A DNA stretch of 34,958 nt from an uncultured Candidatus Saccharibacteria bacterium (GTDB lineage: Bacteria > Patescibacteriota > Saccharimonadia > Saccharimonadales > CAZYVW01), in the NCBI GenBank assembly GCA_964651645.1, contig CAZYVW010000001.1:1-34958 (forward strand), read 5' to 3'. Shown here piece by piece: positions 5,961 to 29,325 of the stretch (position 1 is its first letter; every line of letters begins with the position of its first letter). Under the pieces are notes generated by a model that ran no database searches, was not told the origin of the DNA, and was given only the letters and a program-made list of their open reading frames with translations. Both the position numbers and the translations under genes were made by a program.

Positions 5961-5963
5961 CGG

Positions 5964-6419
5964 TTACTCTACTTCGTGGCCGGTGGCCTGATTAATACGC
6001 GAGGAGCTATCTCTTTTCTCGTATTCATGACTGCCAACACCAAAGACCGTTTCAATATCACAATCAACGCAGGACTGCATTTCGTTTTCCGGAAGAGCAT
6101 GCTTGCTTGGATCCCTGTCACCGCCATTAGCAAAAATTAGCTTGTCATTAGGATACATTCCTCTGATTTTCCTAAGTGTCTTAGCCTGCCCCAGGTCTTC
6201 ATCAATCGACAAAACGACTTCATCAACGTCACGCAAGGCTTTTACAAGACGCACCCTGTTCTGTTCATCAAGGATTATTTTACCCTTCTTGATGTGCTGG
6301 GCCTTATCGTTATTCACGACAACCAGTAGTTTATCTCCTAGCTTTTTGGCAGCCTCCACCATATCTAGATGACCACCGTGCAAAGGATTAAAATAACCGC
6401 TGATAATTACTATTTTCAC
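5964..6419 (-). CDS. cytidylyltransferase-family nucleotidyltransferase (TagD / RfaE-domain-II-like)
   Basis: It carries the HxGH nucleotidyltransferase motif (GYFNPLHGGHLDMV) and a C-terminal SSS motif (RDSSSRI). I prefer GTG 6419 (MKIVIISGYFNP), which has GAGGA 5 nt upstream. The track uses TTG 6431. Confidence 0.7.
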   Translation of the reverse strand: MKIVIISGYFNPLHGGHLDMVEAAKKLGDKLLVVVNNDKAQHIKKGKIILDEQNRVRLVKALRDVDEVVLSIDEDLGQAKTLRKIRGMYPNDKLIFANGGDRDPSKHALPENEMQSCVDCDIETVFGVGSHEYEKRDSSSRINQATGHEVE

Positions 6420-6489
6420 TTGGTTCCTCAAATTTACTGCTCGTTTATGATATCAGATTTAGTATGAACGACTTACCAAAAACTATGTT

Positions 6490-6512
6490 TATAATAAGTA
6501 TGTCAAAAGGAG
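6490..6512 (+). promoter_or_regulatory. -10 TATAAT plus Shine-Dalgarno for the phosphohexomutase gene (a conventional leadered example)
   Basis: TATAAT lies at 6490-6495 and AAAGGAG at 6506-6512. Six nt follow the SD before TTG 6519. Confidence 0.45.
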
Positions 6513-6518
6513 AAAAAT

Positions 6519-9357: not shown

Positions 9358-9908
9358 TGTCAGCAGATTTAGCGGTCCGGGAAACAGCCATTCCAGGGTT
9401 TTATGAAATTGACCTAGTTCTACATGGAGACAACCGCGGCTGGTTTAAAGAAAACTACCAGCGCGAGAAAATGGAAGCCTTGGGATTGCCACATTTTGAG
9501 GTAGTTCAAAACAACTTCTCTTTCAATGCTGAAGTTGGGGTTACGCGCGGCTTACACGCCGAACCCTGGGAGAAATATATTTCCGTCGCTAACGGCAAAA
9601 TCTTTGGAGCTTGGGTAGACCTTAGAGCTGGCGAAAGTTTTGGCAAAGTCTTAACTCTGGAAATTACGCCAGAGAAGGCCGTATTTGTGCCCCGCGGCGT
9701 AGCTAACGCCTACCAAACACTGGAGCCAAATGTTACTTATACTTACTTGGTTAATGAGCATTGGTCGCCAGATGCCAAATACACTTTTGTTAATTTATTT
9801 GACCCGGCGCTTGGTATTAATTGGCCGATTGGCAAAGACAAAGCTATTGTTTCTGAGAAGGATGCCGCCCACCCACTGCTAAAAGACGTTAAAGCGATGG
9901 AGTTATAA
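9357..9908 (+). CDS. rfbC: dTDP-4-dehydrorhamnose 3,5-epimerase
   Basis: 183 aa cupin with RmlC-like motifs (HGDNRGWFKENY, TRGLHAEPWEKY, VPRGVANAYQTL). It overlaps the rfbB stop by 1 nt (TAATG). Confidence 0.9.
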   Translation: MSADLAVRETAIPGFYEIDLVLHGDNRGWFKENYQREKMEALGLPHFEVVQNNFSFNAEVGVTRGLHAEPWEKYISVANGKIFGAWVDLRAGESFGKVLTLEITPEKAVFVPRGVANAYQTLEPNVTYTYLVNEHWSPDAKYTFVNLFDPALGINWPIGKDKAIVSEKDAAHPLLKDVKAMEL

Positions 9909-10763
9909 ATGACAGACAGCGAGATATTGATTGTTGGAGCCAATGGGCAGCTAGGCAAAGCGCTGCAAGCCAAATACCCGGGCGCCAGAGCTGTAGATAT
10001 TGATGAGCTGAACATCAGCGACGCAGCCAGTGTAGAAAACTATGACTGGAATGGGATAAAAGTAATCTTGAATGCCGCAGCATATACCAATGTTGATGGT
10101 GCCGAGTCAGCCGAGGGCCAACTTGCCGCCAAACAAGCCAACGCGGTTGCGCCTAAGAATTTAGCTGACGCCTGCGTTAAGCACGACGTGACAATTGTTC
10201 ATATTTCTACCGATTACGTTTTTGATGGCAGTAAAGTTCCCCACACCGAGGATGAGCCGTTCAGTCCTTTGAGCATTTATGGCTCAACAAAAGCTGACGG
10301 CGACAAGGCAATTGCTACAGCTCCAAAACACTACATCCTGCGTACGTCTTGGGTGATTGGCGACGGCAAAAACTTTGTCCGTACCATGTTAGAGCTAGGG
10401 CAAAAAGGCATTAACCCTACTGTGGTTGGTGACCAAATTGGCCGGCTGACTTTCACAAGCGTATTAGTAGAAGCCATTGATCATTTGCTTTCAAGCAATG
10501 CGGCCTATGGAACTTATAATGTCAGTAACGATGGTGAGCCCGCTTCTTGGGCAGATATTACGCGGGAGATTTTTAAGGATGCCGGATTGCCTAACACCGT
10601 TACAGACACGACAACCGCGGAATATTTTAAGGACAAGCCTGAGGCCGCACCAAGGCCATTACAAAGTAGCTTAGATTTAAGTAAAATTAAAGCGGCAGGT
10701 TTTGTGCCACGTGATTGGCGCGAGGATTTAAAGGATTACATCCAGAAGGAACTGAATTCATGA
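9909..10763 (+). CDS. rfbD: dTDP-4-dehydrorhamnose reductase
   Basis: [38 protein letters not shown] and YGSTKADGD match the RmlD pattern. The ATG directly follows the rfbC stop. Confidence 0.85.
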
Positions 10764-11626
10764 AAGGTATTATCTTAGCCGGCGGCGCCGGAACACGACT
10801 GTACCCGATTACTAAGGGTATTTCCAAACAGCTGATCCCAATTTACGACAAGCCAATGATTTACTACCCGCTGTCTACATTGATGTTGGCTGGCATTAAA
10901 GACATTCTGATCATCACCACTCCACATGAACAAGTTCAATTCCAAAACTTGCTCGGCGACGGCAAAGACTGGGGCATTAACTTGCAGTACGCCGTCCAGC
11001 CCAGCCCAGACGGACTGGCGCAGGCTTTTATTATTGGCGAGGAATTCATAGGCCAGGACAAAGTTGCCTTGATTTTAGGCGACAATATTTTCTATGGTCC
11101 GGGCTTTGGTAATAGCTTGCGTGAGTGTACTGACCCAGACGGTGGCATGGTCTTTGCCTACCGCGTAGCCGACCCAGCACGCTATGGCGTCGTGGAATTT
11201 GACGCCAACCAAAAGGCTATATCAATTGAAGAAAAGCCAGAGGTGCCAAAATCCAATTACGCAGTTGTTGGCCTATACTTCTACGACAATGATGTAGTTG
11301 AGATTGCCAAGAACATTAAACCGAGCGACCGTGGTGAGCTGGAAATCACTGCCGTTAACGACGAATATTTGAAACGAGGCAAGCTCAAGGCCCAGATTAT
11401 GGCGCGCGGTACGGCTTGGCTGGACACTGGTACTTTTGAATCTATGAATGATGCTTCGGAATACATCCGGGTGGTAGAAAAACGCACCGGCTTTAAGATT
11501 GGCTGCCCGGAAGAAATTGCTTTCCGCCAAGACTTTATTACAACTGAGCAGTTGACCAAGTTAGCCGAACCGCTGCAAAAAAGTGGCTATGGCCAGTACC
11601 TTCTGAACCTACTTCAAACAGAATGA
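10760..11626 (+). CDS. rfbA: glucose-1-phosphate thymidylyltransferase
   Basis: [39 protein letters not shown] is the canonical RmlA N-terminus. ATG 10760 overlaps the rfbD stop (ATGA). The longer track ORF from 10715 would overlap rfbD by 49 nt and adds non-homologous residues. Confidence 0.9.
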
Positions 11627-13715: not shown

Positions 13716-14531
13716 TCAGGAATAGACTTTTTGAGCAAAGCGCACAGCTTTCTCTACCCTAGCAACATTTTCCCCTGCTGCCGCGGGTTTCATTTCAATA
13801 GAGACATAGCCGGTATACCCAATATCCTTCAAGGCCAGAGCCGCTTCTTTGTGGTGAACATCTGCCCTGTCCTCAACTTGTTCTAAAAATGGCGAGCTGA
13901 TATGAAAATGTTTCAGTATGTCTTTGGCTGACTCAATGGAAGACTTCACATCATCTTTGGCCAGTGTCATTCCGGCAATATCCAGATGCAGCCCAAAACC
14001 ATCGTTGCCTACAGCTTTTACAAAATCTATACCTTGGCTAGCATTGGTCACAAAATCGCAGGCATAGTCCGTCGGGTTAGGCTCAATGCAAAAACAAACG
14101 TCATTCTCCTTGGCTGTATTGCCTAGCTCATCAAAAAAGTCTTTAGCAATTTTAGTAGCTGATTCATTGTCAAGTTCACCTCTTTGGCGATTTTTGGGTG
14201 AGCCAAATACCATACGCCTAGCCTTCATTTTGCCAGCCAAGCGGATAAAGTCCTGAAGGTAATTTAGTGTCTGTTTACGATTTGCTTCGCTTTCAAATAT
14301 TTTTAAATCTGGATGACTAAAAAGCATTGATTGGAAAGCGACAATTTCTATATCGTACTTCCTCCAAAATTTCATGTAATCATTGATTGCCTGATCATGC
14401 GCAACGGTTGGATCTTCCCATAGTTTTGTTGGAGCAATTTCCACATATTTTACGCCAAGGCTAAGCAACAAAGCTGCGACTTCAGGCTCTTCCTCATTTG
14501 TCCAAGCAATGCTTGATACTGCTAACTTCAT
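13716..14531 (-). CDS. sugar phosphate isomerase/epimerase (xylose-isomerase-like TIM barrel) family protein
   Basis: 271 aa. The pattern of beta-strand-end acidic and His residues (YVEIAP, RMVFGSP, CIEPNP, GLHLDIAG, HFHISS, YVSIEM) is typical of the AP_endonuc_2/TIM-barrel family. The start overlaps the upstream stop by 1 nt. Confidence 0.6.
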   Translation of the reverse strand: MKLAVSSIAWTNEEEPEVAALLLSLGVKYVEIAPTKLWEDPTVAHDQAINDYMKFWRKYDIEIVAFQSMLFSHPDLKIFESEANRKQTLNYLQDFIRLAGKMKARRMVFGSPKNRQRGELDNESATKIAKDFFDELGNTAKENDVCFCIEPNPTDYACDFVTNASQGIDFVKAVGNDGFGLHLDIAGMTLAKDDVKSSIESAKDILKHFHISSPFLEQVEDRADVHHKEAALALKDIGYTGYVSIEMKPAAAGENVARVEKAVRFAQKVYS

Positions 14532-15307
14532 TATTCTTTAGCCTCACGAGCCTGGTCAACAAACTGTTTAATATCACTTACCGCTGCTTCTTTGTCGTAA
14601 ATGTAGTTGCCCCCATTCCCAAATAATTTGGCGTGTTTAGTGTGCATGTCCCAAAAAGCTGGAGTTATGTCTTTTGGTGCTTGTTTAAATTCCTTCATAC
14701 CAAAACATTTAGTAGCAACTTCTTCACTTGTTACTGGCTCAGTCGCAAAGTTGACTAGTTCAAGATTGTTTTTAAGGGCTGTTTGGATATCGCGCCAGAT
14801 ATTTGCCAGATTGTAGTATTGATATGTGCCTTTGGCGTGAATTTTCTCAACCATATTGTTGTTAAGTAGGTCATAAATAACATTCTTCTTAATTCCCTTG
14901 CCAAACAGCCCGGGCAAACGAACAATCAGAGCGTCAAAGTTTTGATTAACAAATTGTTCCAAATGATAGCGGTTTACTCCATACGGCGTCAGACCTTCAG
15001 TTTCAATGGGTGTATCTTCATTGGCATCATTCGGGTTTTTGTATACCCCCACTGTAGATATCAGGACAAACTTTTTGGCTTTTACTTTTTTCAGGTGGCC
15101 TATCAGGGCGTCAATCTGTGCTAAATCGCCTTCCGGGTCTTGGTTTATGCGCCACATTTCGGCATAAGTAGCCGCGCTGACAACCAAGTCATACTCTTTG
15201 CCGTCAATATCATCAATATTGCTGGTGTTATATAAATCGTCAAACTTATACTGTTCGGCAAGGTTGCCGCCAACAAAACCGGTATAACCAATAAGCGCCG
15301 TTTTCAT
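14531..15307 (-). CDS. NAD(P)-binding Rossmann-fold protein (atypical SDR / RmlD-substrate-binding-like)
   Basis: It has an N-terminal glycine-rich loop (MKTALIGYTGFVGGNL) and ISTVGVY. At the expected YxxxK position the sequence reads PYGVNRYHLE, so no canonical Lys is evident. Confidence 0.55.
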   Translation of the reverse strand: MKTALIGYTGFVGGNLAEQYKFDDLYNTSNIDDIDGKEYDLVVSAATYAEMWRINQDPEGDLAQIDALIGHLKKVKAKKFVLISTVGVYKNPNDANEDTPIETEGLTPYGVNRYHLEQFVNQNFDALIVRLPGLFGKGIKKNVIYDLLNNNMVEKIHAKGTYQYYNLANIWRDIQTALKNNLELVNFATEPVTSEEVATKCFGMKEFKQAPKDITPAFWDMHTKHAKLFGNGGNYIYDKEAAVSDIKQFVDQAREAKE

Positions 15308-15318
15308 TATGGTAGCTA

Positions 15319-16074
15319 TTATAGGCTAGTTGATTGATATCCAGCTAGCTTAAGCAAAGGTTCCATTTGCATGAAAAACTGCTGGAAACGCTTGGCTTCG
15401 AAGGCTGGATTAGCTTCTTCCTCAGTGCGCATCGCCGGTGGATAAATTAGATCAACTTGTATACCGCCGATTGGCAATCCGGCCTCGCGTGCGGCTAAAA
15501 TAGGCAGATGCAAGAACAGCCAGTTGTTGTTACCGTCTTCTTCAACATCATAATTTAATAAGTACTGAGCCCCTCTTTCAGTATAGGCACGTCCTCCGGA
15601 AAGAGCGTCAGCTGGAAAATCAAGAAATTTTTGCATCAGCCAGCCTGCCAACTGTTCAGTTTTAGCCATCGTCGACGGCAAAGATCCAATTGCTCCTTCA
15701 GTCCGTCCTATAACTACAGCATCGTTAGTTTTAAGGGCTTCGATAATTGGCTCCGCGAAAGTAACCATCCCAATTTTCTCCGGTTCGTGGCAAACAACTC
15801 TAGCAGCACCGTTTTGAATTGCAAATTTCGTGCCATCAATATACTGAGTCGCCCGTCCAGGTCGTGGTGCTTTTAGAACTACGGCACCTCGTTCTTGCAA
15901 GGCATCAGTGACTTCAGGCAATGGAGATGCATCGACAATCACCAGTGGGATATGTCTTTCTTGATAAGCTTCAGCTGTTTGAAGAGTAGCCTTGTAACGG
16001 ACCGACTCAAGATCATCATAAAGACTAGAAGCAATGCCCACTAAACCCGTGTTTTCGAAGTCATACTCGACCAT
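15319..16074 (-). CDS. hypothetical protein (possibly a GT-A-like or nucleotide-binding alpha/beta fold)
   Basis: 251 aa, soluble-looking, first gene of a three-gene minus-strand unit. AAGGA lies 8 nt upstream of the ATG. Alternating beta/alpha character (PLVIVDASP, AARVVCHEPEK, DAVVIGR) is visible, but no family motif that I can name. Confidence 0.5.
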   Translation of the reverse strand: MVEYDFENTGLVGIASSLYDDLESVRYKATLQTAEAYQERHIPLVIVDASPLPEVTDALQERGAVVLKAPRPGRATQYIDGTKFAIQNGAARVVCHEPEKIGMVTFAEPIIEALKTNDAVVIGRTEGAIGSLPSTMAKTEQLAGWLMQKFLDFPADALSGGRAYTERGAQYLLNYDVEEDGNNNWLFLHLPILAAREAGLPIGGIQVDLIYPPAMRTEEEANPAFEAKRFQQFFMQMEPLLKLAGYQSTSL

Positions 16075-16180: not shown

Positions 16181-18010
16181 ATGAAAGAGAAGTTTAGCGG
16201 TGCCATCTTATCAGGGTATTTTTTTGAGGCTACTTTAGCATTCTTTTCACTTATGATTGGCTATATCGGATCAACTGTGGCAGTTCATCTGCCAGGGGGC
16301 GCGCCTGCAGGAATATCCAACCTATACCTGTCGAACGGCTACAATCCTGAGGAGAATTACCTTAGAATCATTCTTTTGGTAGTTTTTGGGCTGGCGGCTT
16401 ACCTGGGCTTAAAAAAACTCTCAGCCAATGACCGAGTTTTTAGATTAACCGTGATTGTGCTATTAGTTTTTGGCCTGTTTGCTGGATTTCTATTGCCAAA
16501 AGTTGAGAGTTTTAAGAGCAATATAGATACCTTCCACCACGGCGAACAGTTATCCCCGGCACTTGATTTTGGCAAGGGCAAGGGGTTATATACCGACATA
16601 TTTATGCAACACGGCGCGGGTGAAGATGTGGTGCTTCCTCACCTGGCACTCCATTTGCCCGGTACAAATCCTAATGGCGGAATTGGTTCGTTTTTCTTTG
16701 TTATTACAACTTTAGAAGTGGTCAGTGCGTTTCTGTTTTTTTTCCTAATATCTAAGCTTTCTAAGTCAACGCTTGTTTTCTTGGTAACTTCCCTGTGGTT
16801 TCTGCTTTCCTATTATTCAGTCTTCTATTACGTGAGAGATATTTTTGTCTGGGGAACAATTCTATTAATTGCTAGTTTATTACTTCATAAGCACAAGGCC
16901 AAAACTACACGTAATTTATTATTGCTGATTGGCTTTTTGTCTTCGGCGACCTATTTTTACAGTATCGACAGAGCCTTTGTTGCAACGCTTGCCGCCGTAC
17001 TGACCGCTGGCGCCTTAGTTTTGTTCCAGCCGGTAGCTAACGGTCTGCGTTTTGATTGGCGTATTAGTCTAAAGAGATTTCTGCCCGCAGTTTACGTAGC
17101 CAGCGGGGCTCTGCTAGCACAAATCTTTGGCCTAGTTTTGCTAGGTGGTACTCAATACATTGAATTTTTAAAACTTAGCTTTATTACAATCCCAAAGTAC
17201 GAAGGCTACTTATTTGGCCAGCCTTTGAAGCCTCTTGGGCTCAGTACCTATGTTGTCTGGCTACCGCTTTTCATTGCTGCCCTGGGTGCAATTATGTTGT
17301 TTGTTTTAGCTAAACATCAATACACAAAATACAAAGCCCTAAACCCAAGTGTTCTGCTTGGTGCAATTATATATATCGCCGCATTGCTCTTTTTGCGAGT
17401 TGGTTATGGCCGGCCCGATCTTGACCATGTTGCCTATTCCACGCCCCTCTTGTTTTTGTCTGCTTTTTACTTGTCAGCTGTGGCCTACCAGGAATTTCGT
17501 GAAACTAATCTTCAGCTGCTCTGGCCTGTGGTTTTGTTGGTCGTATTGTTATTTTATCCAGTTCAGACTATTTCGTCTGAAAGAGCTCTGGCACTTGCCA
17601 ATACTAACGCCAATTCTATTAGTAAGTATCTGCAGCTTCCGGGCACTACAGATCGCAGCTGGCTGCCCGGGGATGTAATTCAAACGTCAGATTACATACG
17701 CCAAAATACTAAAGCTGATGACCCGATTTTTGTCTTCACCCAGCAGCCAATTTACTACTACACCAGCGGCCGCCAAAACTCTTCAAAATTTTACATCCCC
17801 TGGTTTGCCGACCCACCCGCGCTGACATCACAACTACTAAACGATTTAAAAACCCGGCCGCCAAAAATTATAGTCTACTTTGTTGGTAACCCGTGGGATA
17901 AGTCTGATGGCTACTTGATGTCTGATAGAGCCCCAGAAGTTGATTCGTGGATTAAGCTCAACTACACCAAGCAAGTTAACGTTGGCAGCGCAGTTTTGCT
18001 AGAAAAATAA
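16181..18010 (+). CDS. large polytopic membrane protein, candidate GT-C-type glycosyltransferase
   Basis: 609 aa with at least 12 hydrophobic spans, followed by a roughly 130-aa hydrophilic C-terminal domain (DPIFVFTQQPIYYYTSGRQNSSKFYIPWF...). An acidic/His-rich early loop is present (DTFHHGEQ...HGAGED). No named family recognised. Confidence 0.55.
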   Translation: MKEKFSGAILSGYFFEATLAFFSLMIGYIGSTVAVHLPGGAPAGISNLYLSNGYNPEENYLRIILLVVFGLAAYLGLKKLSANDRVFRLTVIVLLVFGLFAGFLLPKVESFKSNIDTFHHGEQLSPALDFGKGKGLYTDIFMQHGAGEDVVLPHLALHLPGTNPNGGIGSFFFVITTLEVVSAFLFFFLISKLSKSTLVFLVTSLWFLLSYYSVFYYVRDIFVWGTILLIASLLLHKHKAKTTRNLLLLIGFLSSATYFYSIDRAFVATLAAVLTAGALVLFQPVANGLRFDWRISLKRFLPAVYVASGALLAQIFGLVLLGGTQYIEFLKLSFITIPKYEGYLFGQPLKPLGLSTYVVWLPLFIAALGAIMLFVLAKHQYTKYKALNPSVLLGAIIYIAALLFLRVGYGRPDLDHVAYSTPLLFLSAFYLSAVAYQEFRETNLQLLWPVVLLVVLLFYPVQTISSERALALANTNANSISKYLQLPGTTDRSWLPGDVIQTSDYIRQNTKADDPIFVFTQQPIYYYTSGRQNSSKFYIPWFADPPALTSQLLNDLKTRPPKIIVYFVGNPWDKSDGYLMSDRAPEVDSWIKLNYTKQVNVGSAVLLEK

Positions 18011-18011
18011 A

Positions 18012-18827
18012 CTACTGCGCTCTATATTTGCCGCGTATGGCTTTTAGAAGCACTCCCATTACGTGAGCGTTGCCTTTAATCGGGCTAATCTTGGTTGGTG
18101 TTTTACCTTTTTTTGGATACTCGCGGGTAACCGGGGTTTCTGTAAGTTTAAATTTTTTCAGGCGCGCTGCTTCAATGGCCAGATGATAGTGAAGTTCGTA
18201 GGTCATAAAAATATCGCGGAAAACTGCAACTTGGGGATCAGCCAATAACTTGGCACTATAGGCCCGAAAACCATTGGTGGTATCGGTGTGTCTATGGCGA
18301 GCAGCAAGACTAATCAGCGGTGAGTGTACTAAGCGCACAGCCAGCAGACGCTCCAGTGGGGTATTAATGGCATGTCCACCCTTAATAAATCTTGAGCCCT
18401 GAATGTGGTCATAGCCCTTGTCTAACAATTTAATGAAATCTGGTATAGCGGAAACGTCGTCTTTGTTGTTGCCGTCTATAACGACTACGCCGGCATAGCC
18501 TTTATGTAATACGTAAGCAAAAGCCATACGCATTTGGGCGCTTAGTTTGCCCGGGCCAGTTTTAGTAAGTAAGGCTGTTACCTGGACGGACTTCAAAAAA
18601 TTAGTTTCCAGCGAGCCATCGGTACTACCACCGTCAGCAACTATAATATCTACTTGGCCAGCATATTTTTTCATGAGCTTTAACTGTTTCTGAACTTTCT
18701 GGCCTTCATTGATAACAAAAACGCAGACACAATATTTGTGTTTCTTGGGCGCCAGCTCCTTTAGCGTAAAGTCCGGGAATTGCCAAGCAGGGTGTGCCTT
18801 ACGAATTGTTTTTAAATAATCAGTCAT
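18012..18827 (-). CDS. glycosyltransferase family 2, soluble, polyprenyl-phosphate-sugar-synthase-like
   Basis: VFVINEG, IIVADGGSTDGS (residues 62-73), VVVIDGNNKDD (DGN at 118-120) and TNGFRAY are present. No TM span is evident. It appears paralogous to the 22972-23709 product. Confidence 0.75.
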   Translation of the reverse strand: MTDYLKTIRKAHPAWQFPDFTLKELAPKKHKYCVCVFVINEGQKVQKQLKLMKKYAGQVDIIVADGGSTDGSLETNFLKSVQVTALLTKTGPGKLSAQMRMAFAYVLHKGYAGVVVIDGNNKDDVSAIPDFIKLLDKGYDHIQGSRFIKGGHAINTPLERLLAVRLVHSPLISLAARHRHTDTTNGFRAYSAKLLADPQVAVFRDIFMTYELHYHLAIEAARLKKFKLTETPVTREYPKKGKTPTKISPIKGNAHVMGVLLKAIRGKYRAQ

Positions 18828-18829
18828 GG

Positions 18830-19816
18830 TTAGCGTGCTATGTTCCTTCTGGTGGCATCGGCCACCCGTACCTTGCTGTTTAGCTCGTCCAAAATGTAGT
18901 ATTGCGGCTCATGCCAGGTTTCTTCTAAAATTTTCCCGATATATTCACACAGCACAGCCAGGATTGCAAAAAGCAAGAAAAACATTAAGGCCGACTGCAA
19001 AGAAAGTGTCGTCCAGCCTTCGGCCACATTATTTTTGACCAACCGAACGCCTATAACGTAGCCAGCGTAACCTAGGTTCAGGAACGAACCCAAAAAGCCG
19101 AGCCAGGCCAGAAAACGCAAAGGATGTTTGGAGTAATTGGTGGCCAGTTCAATTGCCGACATAAACAATTGGTAGAGGTGTTTTTTCTCACGTTTGTACT
19201 TATCAATAGGCTTATATGGAAAATCCTCGGCTTCGTAGCCAATTTGCCGTGCCAAATATCGGATATGCTTGGCTGATCGATTGCTGCGGGTCAAGGCATT
19301 AACCGCCTTGCGGCTAAAGGCTATAAAGTAAGTGCTATTTACGGGAATAGAGATCCCTAAGAATTTTTTGTTATACCAATAAAATAACTTGGCCCCGTAA
19401 TTATTGGTCAGTCCTGAGCGAATTTTCTGGGTACTAAGCCCAAACACCAGCTCGGCCTTTTGGACTTTAGCGGCAAGTTTGGGGATTAGGTTGATAGGAT
19501 CATTAGACGTACGGACAACTACAATGTCACCAATAGCCGCTTCCAGACCAACGTAGACGCAGATGTCTTTTGGGTAATCCCGCGACAGCCGTATGACTCG
19601 AACACAGGCAATAGTTTTTAAAAGTTCTGTGATGCGGGCCAAGTTTGCGGGACTGATTTTATTTTCAACCAGGATAATTTCATAGTTGCTGTAATGGTCG
19701 CGCATAGTTTGACCGAGCTTTTCTAGATCAGTATGCAGTTTTTGGCTGTCCGCATCGGGAATAAAAACTACCGACACAAAAATATCTTCCAGCTTAACTG
19801 CTCGACGTTTATTCAT
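18830..19816 (-). CDS. GtrB-like membrane-anchored GT2-fold protein with degenerate catalytic motifs
   Basis: Its length and architecture match bactoprenol glucosyltransferase: an N-terminal GT-A domain plus two C-terminal TM spans (FLAWLGFLGSFLNLGYAGYVIG, LMFFLLFAILAVLCEYIG). However, the expected (V/I)DDGS reads ILVENKIS (residues 48-55) and the DxD reads VVRTSNDP (residues 100-107). Confidence 0.7.
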   Translation of the reverse strand: MNKRRAVKLEDIFVSVVFIPDADSQKLHTDLEKLGQTMRDHYSNYEIILVENKISPANLARITELLKTIACVRVIRLSRDYPKDICVYVGLEAAIGDIVVVRTSNDPINLIPKLAAKVQKAELVFGLSTQKIRSGLTNNYGAKLFYWYNKKFLGISIPVNSTYFIAFSRKAVNALTRSNRSAKHIRYLARQIGYEAEDFPYKPIDKYKREKKHLYQLFMSAIELATNYSKHPLRFLAWLGFLGSFLNLGYAGYVIGVRLVKNNVAEGWTTLSLQSALMFFLLFAILAVLCEYIGKILEETWHEPQYYILDELNSKVRVADATRRNIAR

Positions 19817-20924
19817 AAATTAGCTCTATCTCTCTAAGCACATCGTAAATGTTATCAAGTTTCCCTCCCATAATACAGGTATAGCCTTTGAGGCCATGAT
19901 CTTTTTTAAATAAGATCGGACGACTATCGTCATTTTCGCTTTGCGGTAGTACCGTTTTGATCTCCCAAAGTGAATCTACATATTTAGCGTCTTTTAACTC
20001 TGGTATGTAGCGGATGGCATCCTTGTACATCTGTTGAAAATGATTAGCTGGCCTTGCTTCTTCGGCTAATAATTTATGGCCGTCCTGGTAATCTTTGTCA
20101 TCATCCTGCCAATCGTGGTGCGGCGTGTAGCTAACGTGGGAGAGAGTATGTAGCCCTCGTGCAGGAAATGGCATGAATGAAAAAAACGGACCGCACATTA
20201 CTGTTACCGAAGTGTTAGCCAGCCCCTTGGGCAGAGAGATTAGACACATTTCTGTCAGCTCGTGTTTAAGCGGTATTTTGGGAAGACCAGACTGCAGGTT
20301 TATTTTATTAATCATTGAGTAGGTGCAGTTAAAAACGTTCTTGGCATGGTAGCGCTTGCCGCTTTCACACTCAACAGACACTCCGTCCGGATGTTTGACT
20401 ACGCGGTGAACTACCTCACTGGATTTTAAAGTTACGCCGTTGCTTGTAAGTTTATCCGTTAGAGTTTTCTTGAGAATATCAGCGTCAAACACGTACTCTT
20501 TAACTTTAAAGACGTCTTCAATAAGACGATCGTTAAACTTATCTTTGATAAATTGGGGAGCGGAGCCGATTGGAGCATTGATTCTTTCGCAAAATAATTT
20601 AAACTGCTTGGCGGTTACTTTGGAGAAGTTACGGGCAATAGCGTAGTAGGCATCGAAGTCATTAACAATGGCTTTACTATTGTCGCTCACAAACCGGTCA
20701 AAATTTACTTGAGAGCGTAAAGCTGTCAGTAAACTCCGAGGATAGTGGTAGCCACCATGCACCCGAGCCTGATTATTATATGAAGCTCGCCGCATAAAGT
20801 CAGATTCTTTTTCGAGTACCAGCACTCGTTTTTGTTTGAGATTGTCGTGGCAATATTGAGCAATCGTCAGGCCAAAAAAGCCACCCCCAATAATAATGGT
20901 GTCGTACGAATTAGAATCATGCAT
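19809..20924 (-). CDS. FAD-dependent oxidoreductase (DAO-type)
   Basis: It has the dinucleotide-binding N-terminus YDTIIIGGGFFGLTIAQY...VLVLEK followed by ASYNNQARVHGGYHYP, typical of DAO-family flavoenzymes. Its 3' end overlaps the next gene by 8 nt. Confidence 0.75.
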   Translation of the reverse strand: MHDSNSYDTIIIGGGFFGLTIAQYCHDNLKQKRVLVLEKESDFMRRASYNNQARVHGGYHYPRSLLTALRSQVNFDRFVSDNSKAIVNDFDAYYAIARNFSKVTAKQFKLFCERINAPIGSAPQFIKDKFNDRLIEDVFKVKEYVFDADILKKTLTDKLTSNGVTLKSSEVVHRVVKHPDGVSVECESGKRYHAKNVFNCTYSMINKINLQSGLPKIPLKHELTEMCLISLPKGLANTSVTVMCGPFFSFMPFPARGLHTLSHVSYTPHHDWQDDDKDYQDGHKLLAEEARPANHFQQMYKDAIRYIPELKDAKYVDSLWEIKTVLPQSENDDSRPILFKKDHGLKGYTCIMGGKLDNIYDVLREIELIYE

Positions 20925-21004
20925 ATCTTATACACTAGTATATACTAATAACGACACTTTAAGACGATTATTTCAATACCCTTGGAGCAAGAATTGCTTT
21001 AAAT

Positions 21005-21013
21005 GGTACAATC
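21005..21013 (+). promoter_or_regulatory. extended -10 TGGTACAAT upstream of the second GtrA gene
   Basis: TACAAT lies at 21008-21013. Seven nt downstream is an ATG (21021) that opens a 9-codon ORF ending at 21050, which is 5 nt before the GtrA ATG at 21056. Confidence 0.4.
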
Positions 21014-21055
21014 AGTCCCATGATTAAAACATTACGCGGCCTTTTATAGACAATC

Positions 21056-21478
21056 ATGGAAAAGCTTAAAAACTACGCGAACTATTTGTATAGACATAAC
21101 TTGGTGCGCTACCTTTTTGTCGGTGGGACTTCATTTGTTATTCTTTTTGGGGTGCAAGTATTCTTGCATGGAATCTTGGATGTTTGGCTACCGCTGGCAA
21201 CTTTTATAGCTTATTCAACATCAGTTATCTTCAATTTTACGGCTAATCGCCGATGGACTTTTAGTGCATCTGAAGCTAAAAGCCTAAAACAACATATTTT
21301 GCCTTATGCTGCTTTACTCAGTTTTAACTTGTTATTTAATGAGTTGTTTATCAATTTGGGGACACACTTCATCAACTATGCTGTTGCTACAGTACTGGCC
21401 GTTTTGATCCAGACAAGCTGGACGTATTTTATCTATAAAAACGTCATCTTCAATAAAAAAACGGAAGCCAAAGAATAA
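21056..21478 (+). CDS. GtrA family membrane protein
   Basis: 140 aa with four hydrophobic spans. GtrA motifs are present (LVRYLFVGGTSFVILFG, FNFTANRRWTF, WTYFIYKNVIF). Confidence 0.8.
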   Translation: MEKLKNYANYLYRHNLVRYLFVGGTSFVILFGVQVFLHGILDVWLPLATFIAYSTSVIFNFTANRRWTFSASEAKSLKQHILPYAALLSFNLLFNELFINLGTHFINYAVATVLAVLIQTSWTYFIYKNVIFNKKTEAKE

Positions 21479-21479
21479 A

Positions 21480-22907
21480 TCAAAGGGTTCGCGGCCCCGA
21501 GTGAACGTAGTAGCGCAGGACTATCACCACAACAGAGGATACTAGCATTAATGCCATACCAAGTGTCATCAATTTGCAGAGTTTCTGATACTCTGGCGTT
21601 TTGGCCTTGGATTTGAAGCCAAAAAAGGCCACCAGCAAAACTGAAATCGGAATAAAATAGCGCCCTTGGATGCCGTCAACTATTGATTTGCCTACTGGCG
21701 TGTAAGTTAGGTAGGCCAGAGTTGTGAAAGCCAGGATAGTAACAACGCCGACACTAGCAATCAACAGTTTTTGCCAATTTTTAAGCTTTACTAGATTTTT
21801 TTGTTCGTCGTCAGGCATCCAGCCCAAGGCAGTAGCAATCAGCCCAAAATTAAAAATCACAAACCATAGTGGCAAGAACGTCAGCCAACCCAGCATGCCA
21901 ACGTAGCCCATTATTCTGGCATCGCCCACGCCCGTGAAGTAGCTGTTGTAGATTGCCGCTAAGTAGCTTAAAGGTTTATGCAAAATAAACGACGCCTGCT
22001 GATGCGCATGTATCAGCTGGCCGTTTACCAGGTCATAAGTTACACGGTAGTTGGTGTATAGCCCTTTTGTAACATGCCCCCAAACAACAAACATTAATAA
22101 CATTCCTAGAGCTAAGCTTCCAGCAAACAAATAGTAGTTTTTAAGCGATTTAAACTTAGCCCTAGGTAACAACAGATACAGAAGAGCCAGTATAAAATAG
22201 GGGGATTTAGAAAGCATCAATCCTGCGGATGTGCCAAGAAGTATAAGATAGTCCCTCCTTGTAAGCAGATCTTTTGTCATGGCGTAGCGGAAAAATAGTG
22301 CTACAGCCAGAAACGATAGACCGTTAGTTAGGGCGTCTGCCGATAGCGACGCGCCAGTAAAAAGCGACATCGGCATCAATGCCAAGACGCAAAAGACCCA
22401 TTTGCCTTTTGGCGTAATTTTAATAGCCATGTAGGTTAGCAGTAGCCAGGCAATAAAAGTCAGAAGTCTGGCTGTGTACATCAGCACCAAGGGTGGTGCA
22501 TCAAACTGTCTTAATACTGCAATGCCAAACGCCGCCGGAATATATGGCACCGGCGGATAAAGCACAGTGTTAGGAAAATTAATCGGCGTTTTGTCTTGGC
22601 GCTCCAGCGGCCTGGTCAGTCCGGTTCTAACCAGATTAAAGTTTAGCTTGTGGGTTTTTTCTTGAGCAAGGTAATCAAAGGAGTTTTTTGTTTCCAATAG
22701 ACTTCTAGGCAATGTGCCGCCTGCCCCAAGCTGATTTTTGTGGCCAACAATCCCTAGCTCAGAAAGTTGATAGGCTCTATAAAAATGATTGTCTTCGTCT
22801 GAAACTTGATACGGTGGAGTCAGGAATAAAAAAATCAAACCAAAAAATAGAGCCAGGACAAGAAATACTTTTGCCGGATGCAAATAAAAATCAGATAGTT
22901 TAGTCAT
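21480..22907 (-). CDS. DUF2142-like polytopic membrane protein (candidate GT-C transferase)
   Basis: It has at least 11 hydrophobic spans. The first-loop motif PPYQVSDEDNHFYRAYQLSE resembles the conserved PDE..H..RA motif of DUF2142 proteins, which commonly sit in rhamnose/GT2 loci. I prefer ATG 22907 (MTKLSDFYL). The track starts at GTG 22919. Confidence 0.6.
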   Translation of the reverse strand: MTKLSDFYLHPAKVFLVLALFFGLIFLFLTPPYQVSDEDNHFYRAYQLSELGIVGHKNQLGAGGTLPRSLLETKNSFDYLAQEKTHKLNFNLVRTGLTRPLERQDKTPINFPNTVLYPPVPYIPAAFGIAVLRQFDAPPLVLMYTARLLTFIAWLLLTYMAIKITPKGKWVFCVLALMPMSLFTGASLSADALTNGLSFLAVALFFRYAMTKDLLTRRDYLILLGTSAGLMLSKSPYFILALLYLLLPRAKFKSLKNYYLFAGSLALGMLLMFVVWGHVTKGLYTNYRVTYDLVNGQLIHAHQQASFILHKPLSYLAAIYNSYFTGVGDARIMGYVGMLGWLTFLPLWFVIFNFGLIATALGWMPDDEQKNLVKLKNWQKLLIASVGVVTILAFTTLAYLTYTPVGKSIVDGIQGRYFIPISVLLVAFFGFKSKAKTPEYQKLCKLMTLGMALMLVSSVVVIVLRYYVHSGPRTL

Positions 22908-22971
22908 TAGCGTTACCACTAATACTACAGGTGTGCAGAAACCTTGCCAAGAAGCGTTTGGAGCCTAGAAG

Positions 22972-23709
22972 TTAGACCGTCTTAGAATCACGCGGATGAA
23001 AGGCATATAAGAACCAATGCAAGTACATTGGCAGCCATTTGCGAAGGTTGAACTTGGACTCGCCTGTCATGCGGTCTTGCCAAGTAGTAGGCAGTTCTAC
23101 AATTTTTAGACGCTTACGAAAAGCTTTAACGGTAATTTCTAGGGCAACTTCAAAGCCACCGGTACTTTCAATCTTGATTGAATCAAGCAGCTTTTTGTCG
23201 TAAAGACGGAAATTATTAGTAGCGTCATGGATTGGGAAACGGCGGAGATAGTACAGTGAATTCCCAGCCACGCGTGAAAGCGTGCGCTTGATTAGCGGCC
23301 CACCAATTTCTTTGCCGCCCTTCATGTAACGACTAGCGCAAACAACTGATGCTCCGTTTAAATACTCTTTGTACATGGCTCCAACCATCGTTAGGTCATC
23401 AGATAAATCAGCCATAATAACCAGTACTGGTCCGGGTTCTTTGATAGCCGCAAAGCCACTTTTTAAAGCGTTCATTGGCCCACGCCCAATGTTGTTTTTG
23501 TGCAGTCTTATAGTTTTGTCTTTAGCGGCGTATTTTTTGGCAACCGGCACTGTGGTGTCCTCGTCAAAGTCATAAACCACAATTAACTCGTGGGGAATTT
23601 TAATGTCTTTTTTAACGGCTTCGTACAGGCTTGGAAAGTTATCGCCTTCATTGTAAACCGGCGTTACGATATGTAGCTTGGGTTTGCTAGATCCACCCAA
23701 GGCGGACAT
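22972..23709 (-). CDS. glycosyltransferase family 2, polyprenol-monophosphate-sugar-synthase-like
   Basis: HIVTPVYNEGDN, LIVVYDFDEDTT, VIMADLSDD and TNNFRLY are present. I prefer ATG 23709 (MSALGGSSKPK), which overlaps the upstream stop by 1 nt. The track ORF extends to 23769, inside the upstream gene. Confidence 0.75.
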   Translation of the reverse strand: MSALGGSSKPKLHIVTPVYNEGDNFPSLYEAVKKDIKIPHELIVVYDFDEDTTVPVAKKYAAKDKTIRLHKNNIGRGPMNALKSGFAAIKEPGPVLVIMADLSDDLTMVGAMYKEYLNGASVVCASRYMKGGKEIGGPLIKRTLSRVAGNSLYYLRRFPIHDATNNFRLYDKKLLDSIKIESTGGFEVALEITVKAFRKRLKIVELPTTWQDRMTGESKFNLRKWLPMYLHWFLYAFHPRDSKTV

Positions 23710-24911
23710 TAAATTATGCCGCCCTTGCCGTAGAAGTTCCAAATGTCTACCAGTTCCTTGCCGCCCCAATTGTCTTCTGCATAAATGCTGTGCGGCGTAG
23801 CCAGCACAATTGTGTCGGCGCGTTGACGAATTTCGTCCAGCGAAACAAACCGTGGATCTTTAATGAATGGGTCGTGGCAGAGGACTTCTTTGGCCTCAAA
23901 TTCTAAGCGCTTCTTTAGCTTGTAGGAAAGGCTTTCGCGCGGGTCATCATTATCACCCTTAAAGGCCATGCCTAAGATTGCAACGGTGCGACGGGTAAGG
24001 TCATAGCGCTTGCTCATTTTCTCAACGATGTAGTCTGGCAGGCCTTCGTTGACTAGCATGGCCGAGTGTCCAAGGAAAAAGTTGTTCTCACTAAAAGCCG
24101 AAAGTTGCATGGTGTCCTTAAACAAACATGGGCCAGCGGCTAGGCCAGCTTTAGCAAAAGATTTAAGCCGCGGATAGTCTTCTGTCATGGCGTTATAGAT
24201 CTTGTAAAAGTCTAGGTCATGACTGTTGGCAATCATGAAGAACTGGTTGGAAATAGCAAAGTTAATATAGCGCCAGGTGTTGGTAAATAATTTTGCCAAC
24301 TCGGCTTCCATGGGTTTAGTAACGATTATTTTTTTAGCTAAGACTTTGAAGACTTCGCTGGCTGCCTTGGTAGCTTCTTCCGTGCAGCCTCCAACTTGCT
24401 GCGGCAATTCATAAAGTTCCTTAAGAGCGTGCCCCTCAGCAATCCGTTCCGGACAGAAGGCTACTAGCGTCTTTTTGCCCTCTTTTTGCAGGTATTCGTA
24501 AACCTTGTCAGTTACGCCAGGAAACAGCGTGCTGCGCATAATCAGTAACTGATCGTCGCGGAGCTGGTTTTTAATTTGGGCTACGGCTTCAATAATTCCG
24601 GAAATCTTAGGGTTAAGGTGTTCGTCTACCGGCGTACCAATAACCATTATTACAGTTTTGGCTTTATTAATTACGCTTTTATCAGCTGAGGCTTTTAGGG
24701 TCTTACTCTTAATAACTTTTTTTAATAGCTGGTCGGCGTCGTTTTCTTTAAAGGGCATCTCAGCCTTATTAACTTTATCAACGGCTTTTTTATTTAAATC
24801 ATAAAGTACCACCTGTTTCCCTTGGTCGGCAAAAGCCATACCTAGGGGCAAACCAACGTGTCCACAGCCACCAACTATGCAAATATCAATGCCTCTACTG
24901 ACTTCAGCCAT
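23709..24911 (-). CDS. nucleotide-sugar 6-dehydrogenase (UDP-glucose/GDP-mannose dehydrogenase family)
   Basis: It has the N-terminal NAD loop ICIVGGCGHVGLPLGMAF and the catalytic-Cys context AAGPCLFKDT. The C-terminal domain reads ILGMAFKGDNDDPRES. AGGAG lies 5 nt upstream of the ATG. Confidence 0.85.
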   Translation of the reverse strand: MAEVSRGIDICIVGGCGHVGLPLGMAFADQGKQVVLYDLNKKAVDKVNKAEMPFKENDADQLLKKVIKSKTLKASADKSVINKAKTVIMVIGTPVDEHLNPKISGIIEAVAQIKNQLRDDQLLIMRSTLFPGVTDKVYEYLQKEGKKTLVAFCPERIAEGHALKELYELPQQVGGCTEEATKAASEVFKVLAKKIIVTKPMEAELAKLFTNTWRYINFAISNQFFMIANSHDLDFYKIYNAMTEDYPRLKSFAKAGLAAGPCLFKDTMQLSAFSENNFFLGHSAMLVNEGLPDYIVEKMSKRYDLTRRTVAILGMAFKGDNDDPRESLSYKLKKRLEFEAKEVLCHDPFIKDPRFVSLDEIRQRADTIVLATPHSIYAEDNWGGKELVDIWNFYGKGGII

Positions 24912-24966: not shown

Positions 24967-25536
24967 TCACAATGACATCCCCTGCAGGAAATCAGCAGCC
25001 TTTTGCATAGCCAAGTGATGATTGTAAGCAGAGACTTCTGGTATTTCGTCTAGGCCAATCCAGCGGAAGTCGGCCGCTTCATTCTGGGGGGAAAGCGAGC
25101 CGCCATATATATTAATAAGGTAAGTTAGAGCGATTGCATGCTTGCTAGGATCATAGCCACCTTCGGCATGATCGCGGTGGGCATACTCTGCTACATGGAC
25201 AGGCCGATCCGCAGCATTGCCACCATGGAAGTTAAAAGTTTCTACTCTTAAGTCGTTAAATAGGTGGCGGTGTATTGCATCAGCAATACCTTCGTCTTTT
25301 TTTATTCGGCCGCCCAGCATGGCTGGCTTTCCGGCTTCTGGCCCGGTGGCTCTAGTTATAATGCCAAGTCTTGGTTGGCGCCTGGTGTAGTCAACTGGTA
25401 GAAAGTCCACACATATTAGCGGCAGGTTTCGGACTACAAGCTCATACGCCGGCTCAGTCAAAAGCCCGTCTTTGTCATTAATTCCTTTTTTAGCAATAGC
25501 GTTAGCTAACGCTTTGTCAGATTCAACTCCGCTCAT
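24967..25536 (-). CDS. Nudix-fold-like protein with a degenerate Nudix box
   Basis: Residues 76-98 (GRIKKDEGIADAIHRHLFNDLRV) fit the spacing Gx5Ex7R.U, but the REUxEE glutamates read RHLFND. The overall size (189 aa) is typical of single-domain Nudix-like proteins. The call is tentative. Confidence 0.4.
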   Translation of the reverse strand: MSGVESDKALANAIAKKGINDKDGLLTEPAYELVVRNLPLICVDFLPVDYTRRQPRLGIITRATGPEAGKPAMLGGRIKKDEGIADAIHRHLFNDLRVETFNFHGGNAADRPVHVAEYAHRDHAEGGYDPSKHAIALTYLINIYGGSLSPQNEAADFRWIGLDEIPEVSAYNHHLAMQKAADFLQGMSL

Positions 25537-28119: not shown

Positions 28120-29325
28120 GTGATCGTTAAAGAATGTTTTTTATGTAAAAGTAAGAAGCTTTATAAAGTTATTGATCTGGGCTTTCACCCACTGGCCGAT
28201 ACTTTCCTTAAGGCTCCTCAGCTGGATGGACCGGAAACCCGCTATCCATTATTTGTTGTGGCCTGCAAAGACTGCGGCCATTTAATGAACGGCTACATTG
28301 TGCCAGCTAAAGCCCGTTACCAGGAAAACGAATACAGCTACGATTCTTCTAACTCACAAGTTTCAATAAACCACTTTGACGAATTTGCCCAAGAGGCCAT
28401 CAAGCTCGTTGGCGTTACTAAAGACGATTTGGTAGTAGATGTTGGCTCCAATGTTGGCACTTTTTTATCTAAGTTCCGTGAACATTCTGGCTGCAGCGTA
28501 ATCGGTATTGAGCCTTCGCACAACATTGCCGTACTAGCTAGAAAAAACGGTGTTAAAACTTTTGAAGAATTTTTTAACTCCAAAGCCATTAAGCAAATTA
28601 AGGAAACCTCCAAGGCCAAGTTGATTACCGGGACTAATGTTTATAACCACATTGAAGACCAAGCGTCTTTTGCCAAGGATGCAATCGACTTACTAACTCC
28701 AGACGGCATGATTGCTATAGAAACGCCTTACGCCGGCAAGCTGATCGATGAAACCTCTTTTGACACGATTTATTTAGAGCACGCCTCTTATTTCTTTGTA
28801 ACGTCGCTTAAAAAATTCTGGGGCAAGTATGGCTTTAAAATTAGCCATGTGGAGCTTAATGATTACATGAGTGACTCGATGCGCTTTTACTTAAGCCGCC
28901 AGTTACCAGAAAGCCCGGCCGTAGCTAAAATGATTAGAGACGAGGCCAAAAAGGGCTACTTTAAACCAAAAACTTACGAAGCCTTCATGGAGCGCACTGT
29001 GAAATTCAAAATGGATCTTATGAAAGAGCTTTACCAAATTAAAGCCAAAGGTGGTGTAGTTATTGGCATTGGCGCAGCAACTAAAGGCAACACCCTACTT
29101 AACTACTGCGGCATTGACAGCACACTACTGGAATACGTGACTGACGCTTCGCCATTAAAAGTCGGCAAGTTTACCCCAGGCTCGCACCTGCCGATCAAAC
29201 ACGACAAAGACATTGATAACAAGGTTGTGACGCACGGTTTGATTCTGCCATGGAATATTGGCGATTTTCTTAGTAAAAAACTTGGCTTCTTAGGCATCAA
29301 GTTCTTGGTCCCACACCTAAAGTAG
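28120..29325 (+). CDS. NDP-hexose C-methyltransferase-like protein (TylCIII-type architecture)
   Basis: It has an N-terminal four-Cys zinc ribbon (CFLCKSKKL...CKDCGH) and a class I SAM motif (VVDVGSNVGTF). The C-terminal domain ends in G.FLVP, as in sugar C-methyltransferases. The start is GTG, the only in-frame start that retains the zinc ribbon. Confidence 0.7.
   Translation: MIVKECFLCKSKKLYKVIDLGFHPLADTFLKAPQLDGPETRYPLFVVACKDCGHLMNGYIVPAKARYQENEYSYDSSNSQVSINHFDEFAQEAIKLVGVTKDDLVVDVGSNVGTFLSKFREHSGCSVIGIEPSHNIAVLARKNGVKTFEEFFNSKAIKQIKETSKAKLITGTNVYNHIEDQASFAKDAIDLLTPDGMIAIETPYAGKLIDETSFDTIYLEHASYFFVTSLKKFWGKYGFKISHVELNDYMSDSMRFYLSRQLPESPAVAKMIRDEAKKGYFKPKTYEAFMERTVKFKMDLMKELYQIKAKGGVVIGIGAATKGNTLLNYCGIDSTLLEYVTDASPLKVGKFTPGSHLPIKHDKDIDNKVVTHGLILPWNIGDFLSKKLGFLGIKFLVPHLK

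Follow-up and report, generated by a model that had tools for sequence, protein, structure and literature searches.

A GtrB-like pseudoenzyme paired with a DAO-type flavoenzyme in a conserved five-gene glycan module: a possible second route of sugar epimerization on a lipid carrier

Very few systems are known to epimerize a sugar on its lipid carrier: DprE1/DprE2 and one short-chain dehydrogenase/reductase (SDR) in enterobacterial O-antigen side chains. DprE1 and DprE2, a major tuberculosis drug target, epimerize decaprenyl-phospho-ribose to decaprenyl-phospho-arabinose. The stretch of DNA analyzed here (the window) comprises 34,958 nucleotides of contig CAZYVW010000001.1 from an uncultured Candidatus Saccharibacteria bacterium (assembly GCA_964651645.1). 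It is a cell-envelope glycan locus of 45.7% GC, its closest relatives are metagenome-assembled genomes (MAGs) of Saccharimonadales, and it encodes a DAO-type flavoenzyme, a degenerate homolog of the membrane glycosyltransferase GtrB (pseudo-GtrB), a family 2 glycosyltransferase (GT2) without a transmembrane (TM) segment, an SDR, and a triose-phosphate isomerase (TIM) barrel resembling ketose 3-epimerases. Comparison of gene neighborhoods indicates that these five genes form one conserved unit. The module may assemble a rare sugar on polyprenyl phosphate, for use in glycosylation of the cell wall outside the cytoplasm, with pseudo-GtrB serving as the lipid-binding subunit of the flavoenzyme; this is the reading favored here, with a confidence that falls slightly short of even.

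Several described systems resemble parts of this locus. In a 2025 cryo-electron microscopy study of GtrB, D96 and Q98 are the Mg2+ ligands, the catalytic base is proposed to be D94 or D157, and the phosphate of undecaprenyl phosphate (UndP) is bound by R122, R125, K132 and R197 (PMC12698845). The mycobacterial and corynebacterial Ppm1/Ppm2 systems combine a soluble polyprenyl-phosphate-mannose synthase with a membrane partner (PMC3460810, PMC3485146). In the pentofuranose side-chain system of C. youngae (ORF15/ORF13/ORF12), the lipid-linked sugar is the substrate of an auxiliary SDR epimerase, the only epimerase of such systems known to the authors (PMC11127046). An earlier note on the window had held that no bacterial system of this composition was described. 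This agrees with the literature searches as regards the module itself, of which no description was found, and is too broad for the combination of a soluble synthase with a membrane partner, of which Ppm1/Ppm2 is an example. Literature searches on the module, on GT2 or GtrB pseudoenzymes, on Saccharibacteria glycan genes and on lipid-linked keto-sugar epimerases returned nothing relevant, and the module and its GtrB pseudoenzyme appear to have been described by nobody.

The product of the pseudo-GtrB gene matches the NCBIfam families PgfS (2e-23) and ArnC (9e-16) over nearly its full length, and a solved GtrB structure in the PDB in a full-length HMMER alignment (6e-22). Its scores lie below the family cut-offs (PgfS, 83 bits vs 500; ArnC, 57.7 vs 529; PF00535, 21.5 vs 23.3). 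Its AlphaFold2 (AF2) model has a predicted local distance difference test score (pLDDT) of 81 and a predicted template modeling score (pTM) of 0.74, and the top Foldseek matches of the model are GtrB and ArnC (TM-scores 0.74-0.78; 9nyf/9nyc). Two C-terminal helices, H234-260 and H268-300, both align to the TM helices of GtrB. The GtrB architecture with two TM helices that had been claimed from the sequence is thus upheld as to the fold (AF2, Foldseek, HMMER); by a strict hydropathy cut-off, only one of the two helices passes.

Conservation within pseudo-GtrB is 0.71 for the second TM helix (TM2) and 0.58 for the C-terminal tail, with an overall value of 0.50. The tail is near-invariant (N325 is present in 99% of the clade) and is modeled at pLDDT <50; a tail that is conserved yet of low model confidence is what would be expected of a docking peptide. 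R169, D106 and P107 are invariant or nearly so across the clade, as is R186 in the close family. An exhaustive search yielded 286 clusters (50% identity) below E 1e-30. Among the matches listed there are no fusions of the flavoenzyme with a GtrB-like protein or of a GtrB-like protein with a GT2, the lengths in this check being 163-357 amino acids (fragments included) and 365-410 amino acids.

Residues were mapped by pairwise HMMER alignment to GtrB, by MAFFT over 120 close homologs, over 143 full-length clade representatives, and by L-INS-i. In the alignment to GtrB, NDGS is replaced by ENKI (within VENKIS), I-DAD-LQ-DP by RTS-N-DP in a loop two residues shorter, and GDFR by TYFI. Among the close homologs, the position of D43 is Asn in 103/120; that of D96 is Asp in 0/120, the loop being one to two residues shorter; and that of D157 is Tyr in 117/120, inside a conserved S/A-T-Y-F/Y motif. 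In the window protein and these homologs D94 is not conserved, Q98 is variable, R159 is hydrophobic and D99-P100 is invariant. Three of the UndP-phosphate ligands are lost (R122 has become Ser/Ala and K132 Asn/Glu, and R197 falls in a gap), R125 is partly retained, and K180 is retained as the invariant R186.

The shortened loop is universal in the 143 representatives, and positions 94-98 are unconstrained in them (the D96 position is Asp in 19/143), so that loss of the metal site is ancient and clade-wide. By the same alignments the window subfamily is the most degenerate branch of the clade. Since the replacements are conserved and the open reading frame (ORF) is intact in hundreds of lineages, the loss of these signatures is a family trait rather than the outcome of chance or decay. 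The alignments indicate that pseudo-GtrB no longer has a UDP-sugar/Mg2+ site. They bear out the earlier reading that the DDGS acid, the DxD and the acceptor-loop Asp have gone (ENKI, RTS-N and TYFI), and alignment against GtrB and ArnC places no conserved Asp at the catalytic positions.

Two trivial explanations were rejected. An alignment shift that hides the DxD is contradicted by HMMER, MAFFT (120 and 143 sequences) and L-INS-i, which agree with each other and with the predicted secondary structure (β4 at 98-103, α4 at 108-121); none of the residues at the end of β4 is an Asp. A decaying pseudogene is contradicted by an intact ORF of constant length with invariant residues across the 286 clusters.

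The GtrB-like protein might still be an enzyme, either a metal-independent polyprenyl-phosphate glycosyltransferase or one that uses another donor, perhaps made by the flavoenzyme, in which case the GT2 would perform a different step. VDDGS remains in many clade members, and in some so does the D94 equivalent, a candidate base in GtrB/ArnC. The conservation of R169, R186 (K180 of GtrB), D106 and P107 would also suit an enzyme, and the S/A-T-Y-F/Y motif of the close family could be a new active-site element. Such an activity is nevertheless rather improbable in view of the unconstrained positions 94-98, the additional loss of the DDGS loop in the window subfamily (VENKIS/VDNxL), the loss of R122, K132 and R197, and the finding that pseudo-GtrB is the fastest-evolving of the five proteins.

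The flavoenzyme is of the DAO type, as the earlier note had proposed (Pfam DAO, 7.9e-16). Its best NCBIfam matches are type 2 glycerol-3-phosphate oxidase and LhgO, and AF2 predicts a DAO/GlpD-type fold (pLDDT 92, pTM 0.90). Foldseek returned GlpD, GlpO, sarcosine oxidase and glycine oxidase (TM-scores 0.72-0.77), that is, the generic DAO/GlpD family without a clue to the substrate, and a PDB sequence search matched the N-terminus that binds flavin adenine dinucleotide (FAD) only.

The flavoenzyme and pseudo-GtrB genes of the window meet at TTATGAATAA, in which the letters ATGAATAA form an 8-nt overlap, and the pseudo-GtrB and GT2 genes meet at TAA-CC-ATG, a 2-nt gap; the genes of the operon are in different reading frames. 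The ORF list and the sequence itself confirm the positions of these three minus-strand genes, their overlap and their gap as originally described. Elsewhere the flavoenzyme and pseudo-GtrB genes overlap in 43/44 genome loci. A search from the flavoenzyme side gave 80 metagenome loci, 75 of them with enough flanking DNA, and a GtrB-like gene lies directly downstream of the flavoenzyme gene in 63/75. The other 12 consist of five ORF-merging artefacts in which the gene is in fact downstream, five loci with the gene directly upstream, one with the gene 2 kb downstream and one on a contig that is too short. The GtrB-like gene is therefore adjacent to the flavoenzyme gene, or within 2 kb of it, in about 74/75 metagenome loci.

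Pairwise-distance matrices from 29 loci were compared in a mirror-tree analysis, with partial correlations calculated after removal of the mean of the other three proteins. The flavoenzyme and pseudo-GtrB have the highest distance correlation (r 0.967; partial r 0.82), and the partial r of pseudo-GtrB and the GT2 is -0.20; because the pairs are non-independent, these values are suggestive only. By mean distance pseudo-GtrB evolves fastest (0.50) and the GT2 slowest (0.27). On a cyanobacterial contig (L053/L054, 3424-5596; PipX gene nearby) the DAO and GtrB-like pair occurs alone, convergent with a Wzy_C-family gene, and genes for the GT2, SDR and TIM barrel are absent within 5 kb. Gene order and co-variation point to the flavoenzyme, not the GT2, as the constant partner of pseudo-GtrB, given the near-universal overlap and linkage of the two genes, their strongest co-variation, and the occurrence of the pair alone or apparently transferred.

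A pair on its own is also found on two Acidimicrobiaceae MAG contigs of ~67-74% GC, L001 (CAWHGF010000002.1, 7000-9000) and L003 (CAVWKG010000016.1). There it forms an island of ~2.1 kb and 36-38% GC between the genes for shikimate kinase and dehydroquinate synthase/dehydroquinase, beside a transposase-like helix-turn-helix fragment. The proteins of the pair are 55-60% identical to those of the window, and the flavoenzyme gene of L003 is split into three pieces. By appearance the pair alone was acquired recently from a Saccharibacteria-like donor of low GC; the alternative is a chimeric assembly.

The soluble GT2 resembles DPM1 and AglJ. It matches AglJ (2.8e-14) and the haloarchaeal dolichyl-phosphate hexose transferase (6.7e-9) in NCBIfam, far below the equivalog cut-offs, and the Pyrococcus dolichyl-phosphate mannose synthase (DPMS) PfDPMS (5mlz) with an E value of 0.0018; hydropathy reveals no TM segment. 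Invariant in the family are ADGGSTDGS, GSRF, TDTTNGFRAYS and D118-G-N120-x-K122-D (DGNNK in the window). In PfDPMS, Asp91 and Gln93 of 89-DADLQH-94 are metal ligands (PMC5526996). Both are replaced in this GT2, which is therefore not a canonical GT2, and the Lys in place of one of them suggests metal-independent stabilization of the diphosphate. The earlier description of a TM-less GT2 with an intact DGGS motif holds on both points, but the DxD equivalent is the invariant DGNxK. The protein retains the GSR Arg that docks dolichyl phosphate in PfDPMS, an acceptor loop (TDTTNGFR), and an amphipathic helix of its own equivalent to IFH1 of DPMS. It is the most conserved of the five module proteins, with identities of 71-80% among the 120 best matches and of 58-79% between Saccharibacteria and Actinobacteria.

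The earlier note had cast pseudo-GtrB as the membrane partner of this adjacent GT2. In its fullest form, pseudo-GtrB would be a membrane anchor or lipid presenter for the GT2, in the manner of DPM1 with DPM2/DPM3, Alg13/Alg14 or Ppm1/Ppm2, and the flavoenzyme would act later and alone. Consistent with this, the two genes lie side by side on one strand in 35/38 loci, the GT2 lacks a TM segment, and soluble polyprenyl-phosphate-mannose synthases with membrane partners are known (PMC3460810, PMC3485146). The GT2 gene, however, lies 0.5-3 kb away in three loci, is on the opposite strand in three and is absent within 8 kb in two, and the flavoenzyme gene stays adjacent. The negative partial correlation, the presence in the window of a second TM-less DPM1-like GT2 without such a partner, and the amphipathic helix of the GT2 likewise argue against the proposal, which is considered unlikely.

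A scan of species-representative genomes gave 48 loci of the pseudo-GtrB family. The usual gene order is flavoenzyme, pseudo-GtrB, GT2, and homologs of the SDR and TIM-barrel genes accompany them nearly everywhere. The synteny of the trio, on which the proposed three-gene unit depended, is thus found across many genomes, but the limit of three genes is not, since the SDR and TIM-barrel genes belong to the unit. All five genes are contiguous in many Saccharibacteria, and in cultured Microbacteriaceae (Microbacterium binotii, Cryobacterium glaciale, Galbitalea, Subtercola, Amnibacterium and Microcella) they form one tight operon. The five-gene set is also conserved in phyla beyond these two groups. 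The operon of Cryobacterium has ABC-transporter glycan genes and glycosyltransferases on one side, and GtrA and a 1001-amino-acid protein with ~15 TM segments on the other. Clade members only 31% identical to the query have the same five genes in shuffled orders (DAO-GtrB-like-SDR-TIM-GT2 and DAO-GtrB-like-GT2-SDR-TIM). The surroundings of the module include GtrA, polytopic membrane proteins, and rhamnose and ABC-transporter glycan genes.

The SDR retains the NAD motif GxTGFVG and the catalytic Tyr109; a PDB sequence search with it was uninformative. It has a conserved Y109-x-x-x-R113, compared with the canonical YxxxK. The TIM barrel matches the profiles of Pfam AP_endonuc_2 (2e-21), IolO (7.6e-20) and D-psicose 3-epimerase (5e-14). 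Its E150/D184/H210/E246 align to E150/D183/H209/E244 of the A. tumefaciens D-psicose 3-epimerase (2hk0), the Mn2+/catalytic tetrad, and conservation of these four residues extends over 51 homologs. Another TIM-barrel paralog, a divergent one (~30% identity), occurs in many Nanosynbacter-type loci.

These enzymes could in principle act on soluble metabolites such as nucleotide sugars, glycerol-3-phosphate and ketoses, the GtrB-like gene being a functionless relic. The families nearest to the flavoenzyme that have names use small soluble substrates, and ketose 3-epimerases act on free sugars. A relic, however, would hardly remain an intact ORF of conserved length in >280 clusters (50% identity) from several phyla, with invariant residues and overlapping start and stop codons, always within cell-envelope glycan loci with GtrA. 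This explanation is regarded as the least plausible.

It is also very unlikely that pseudo-GtrB is a carrier or scramblase that holds or flips the lipid-linked intermediate rather than anchoring an enzyme. TM2 is the best conserved region of the protein, and a recent study of PfDPMS proposes that this enzyme perhaps flips its own product (PMC12992685). Such a role would leave the near-obligate translational coupling to the flavoenzyme unexplained, however, and a candidate flippase of the GtrA family already accompanies the module.

In the favored reading, which makes pseudo-GtrB the subunit through which the flavoenzyme binds lipid, polyprenyl phosphate would first be loaded by the TM-less GT2 with a sugar taken from a nucleotide sugar, and Lys122 would probably take the place of the missing metal. 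The flavoenzyme would then oxidize a ring hydroxyl, most likely the C2-OH beside the C1 phosphate. This site is suggested by the resemblance of the flavoenzyme to glycerol-3-phosphate oxidases, by analogy with DprE1, and by the ketose-like character of a 2-keto-glycosyl phosphate, which would be a natural substrate for a ketose-3-epimerase homolog. The TIM-barrel enzyme would invert the carbon adjoining the keto group, as D-psicose 3-epimerase inverts the carbon next to its keto group, and the SDR would reduce the keto group. GtrA would flip the product, and a polytopic GT-C-like protein would transfer it. Pseudo-GtrB, embedded in the membrane, would bind lipid, tether the flavoenzyme and offer it the lipid-linked sugar, and might do the same for all the module enzymes, rather than being an anchor for just the GT2. 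A role for the flavoenzyme like that of DprE1, from a different fold family (DAO/GlpD), had been suggested before and fits the genomic context.

Several points weigh against this scheme. Gene adjacency is functional linkage, not physical contact, and mirror-tree correlations can mirror a shared evolutionary rate. The contrast in conservation between the TM region and the catalytic loop is known from the pseudo-GtrB clade alone. A VDDGS-type loop is present in many distant clade members and D94 in some, and these proteins may have residual ligand binding or catalysis. To our knowledge, no DAO-family enzyme oxidizes glycosyl ring hydroxyls. A more specific proposal is advanced only tentatively, as possible rather than probable: pseudo-GtrB and the DAO flavoenzyme may form an obligate two-subunit polyprenyl-phospho-sugar oxidase, in which an inactive glycosyltransferase would have been put to new use in presenting the lipid substrate, and, with the epimerase and the SDR, an independent second route of on-carrier epimerization beside DprE1/DprE2, widespread in Saccharibacteria, Actinobacteria, Cyanobacteria and others, that yields a rare cell-wall sugar.

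Table 1. Genes of the module and neighboring features in the window.
Feature	Positions	Strand	Basis or remarks
DAO-family FAD oxidoreductase, 371 aa	19809-20924	-	Pfam DAO 7.9e-16; AF2 and Foldseek
Pseudo-GtrB, 328 aa	18830-19816	-	GT-A domain, juxtamembrane helices, two TM helices, conserved C-terminal tail
TM-less DPM1/AglJ-like GT2, 271 aa	18012-18827	-	NCBIfam and PDB matches, hydropathy
Extended-SDR-like protein, 258 aa; proposed keto-sugar reductase	14531-15307	-	Pfam Epimerase 3.3e-8
Xylose-isomerase-like TIM barrel of ketose-3-epimerase type, 271 aa; proposed epimerase	13716-14531	-	Pfam/NCBIfam profiles
Accessory soluble protein, 251 aa, faint GT-A-like signal	15319-16074	-	TIGR04283 E 0.0045 only
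Polytopic membrane protein, 609 aa, about 10-12 TM (hydropathy); candidate GT-C-type transferase	16181-18010	+	
GtrA-family small membrane protein, divergent from operon; candidate flippase	21056-21478	+	Pfam GtrA_DPMS_TM 4.9e-15
Divergent intergenic region, 131 nt, between flavoenzyme gene and gtrA	20925-21055		Sequence read
DUF2142 membrane protein	21480-22919	-	DUF2142 4.9e-61
Second TM-less DPM1-like GT2	22972-23769	-	Glycos_transf_2 1.7e-16; partial PgfS and PpgS matches

The remainder of the window encodes RmlABCD, a priming phosphoglycosyl transferase, a GT4, a Wzy-like protein and a UDP-sugar dehydrogenase, and its membrane proteins include two GtrA proteins, the DUF2142 protein and polytopic proteins of PMT_2 type. 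The intergenic region of Table 1 is presumed to be the promoter region of the operon. The second GT2 gene adjoins the DUF2142 and GtrA genes and has no pseudo-GtrB partner, and the DUF2142 and second GT2 genes (21480-23769) are probably a separate Gtr-type side-chain system. With its called TTG start, the second GT2 gene shares 61 nt with the UDP-sugar dehydrogenase gene; an internal Met ~20 codons downstream is therefore probably the true start. A DUF4916/Nudix protein and a sugar C-methyltransferase (Methyltransf_13/14) are also encoded (24967-25536 and 28120-29325), which hints at more unusual sugar chemistry in the glycan cluster.

Soluble proteins of 251-316 amino acids like the accessory protein of Table 1 (another is at 15903-16850 of L037) occur in ~19/50 module loci. 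The 609-amino-acid polytopic protein has no Pfam, NCBIfam or PDB sequence match, and homologs of it lie beside the module in five other loci (L008, L010, L011, L039 and L042). Large polytopic families (450-1000 amino acids, 10-16 TM segments) recur beside the module without a match in the same three databases; besides the window protein they include those at 5497-6858, 9753-11117 and 11124-13238 of L037 and at 11953-14955 of L030. These recurrent families are candidates for new GT-C-like transferases.

The comparative evidence indicates that the module is widespread and internally coherent. If the proposed chemistry is true, a widespread and unrelated enzyme set would broaden the concept of sugar epimerization on a lipid carrier and would point to a novel cell-wall sugar in Saccharibacteria and Microbacteriaceae. 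The module would also show clearly that bacteria can keep a glycosyltransferase pseudoenzyme as a subunit of a redox enzyme. As the module occurs in cultured, tractable Actinobacteria (Microbacterium binotii and Cryobacterium glaciale), it is directly testable. It occurs both in epibiotic Saccharibacteria and in Actinobacteria that are likely to be their hosts, and the pair seems to have been transferred recently; both points have a bearing on the exchange of surface glycans between episymbiont and host.

Compared with GtrB, ArnC and PgfS, pseudo-GtrB is homologous over its full length and shares the GT-A domain, the juxtamembrane helices, the two TM helices and the PLR, GEY and RPxY motifs. 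It differs in the absence of the DxD/Q metal site, the loop that is one to two residues shorter, the change of D157 to Tyr, the loss of the DDGS acid in the window subfamily and of most UndP-phosphate ligands, and in being always paired with a DAO flavoenzyme. By its metal site, nucleotide loop, UndP ligands and family cut-offs, it is a GtrB homolog that would fall outside the functional family. DPM1-DPM2/DPM3 and Ppm1-Ppm2 are similar in that a TM-less DPM1-like GT2 is encoded beside a potential membrane recruiter. The membrane protein of the module, however, is a degenerate GT2 paralog rather than a small DPM3-type or Lnt-like protein, and its tightest genomic partner is an oxidase, not the GT2.

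The TIM barrel keeps all four metal/catalytic residues of the ketose 3-epimerases (D-psicose/D-tagatose) and IolO, but its identity to them is low (E 5e-8), and from its operon the expected substrate is a keto-glycosyl-phospholipid and not a free ketose. In Gtr-type three-component systems, as in this locus, the donor is a lipid-linked monosaccharide, and a small flippase and a polytopic transferase complete the set; GtrA, the DUF2142 protein and the 609-amino-acid candidate GT-C protein flank the operon, and GtrA and similar components also flank the module in L007, L018 and L030. Unlike these systems, including that of C. youngae, the module has three redox/epimerase enzymes, and the place of the catalytic GtrB is taken by pseudo-GtrB. 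The fold of the flavoenzyme is DAO/GlpD and not VAO/PCMH as in DprE1, the lipid-linked sugar would come from a GT2 and not from a UbiA-type phosphoribosyl pyrophosphate transferase, and a ketose-3-epimerase-like enzyme and the pseudo-GtrB subunit are additional. In both DprE1/DprE2 and the module, nonetheless, an FAD oxidase and an SDR reductase are encoded with lipid-sugar machinery, GT-C-like transferases and a small flippase.

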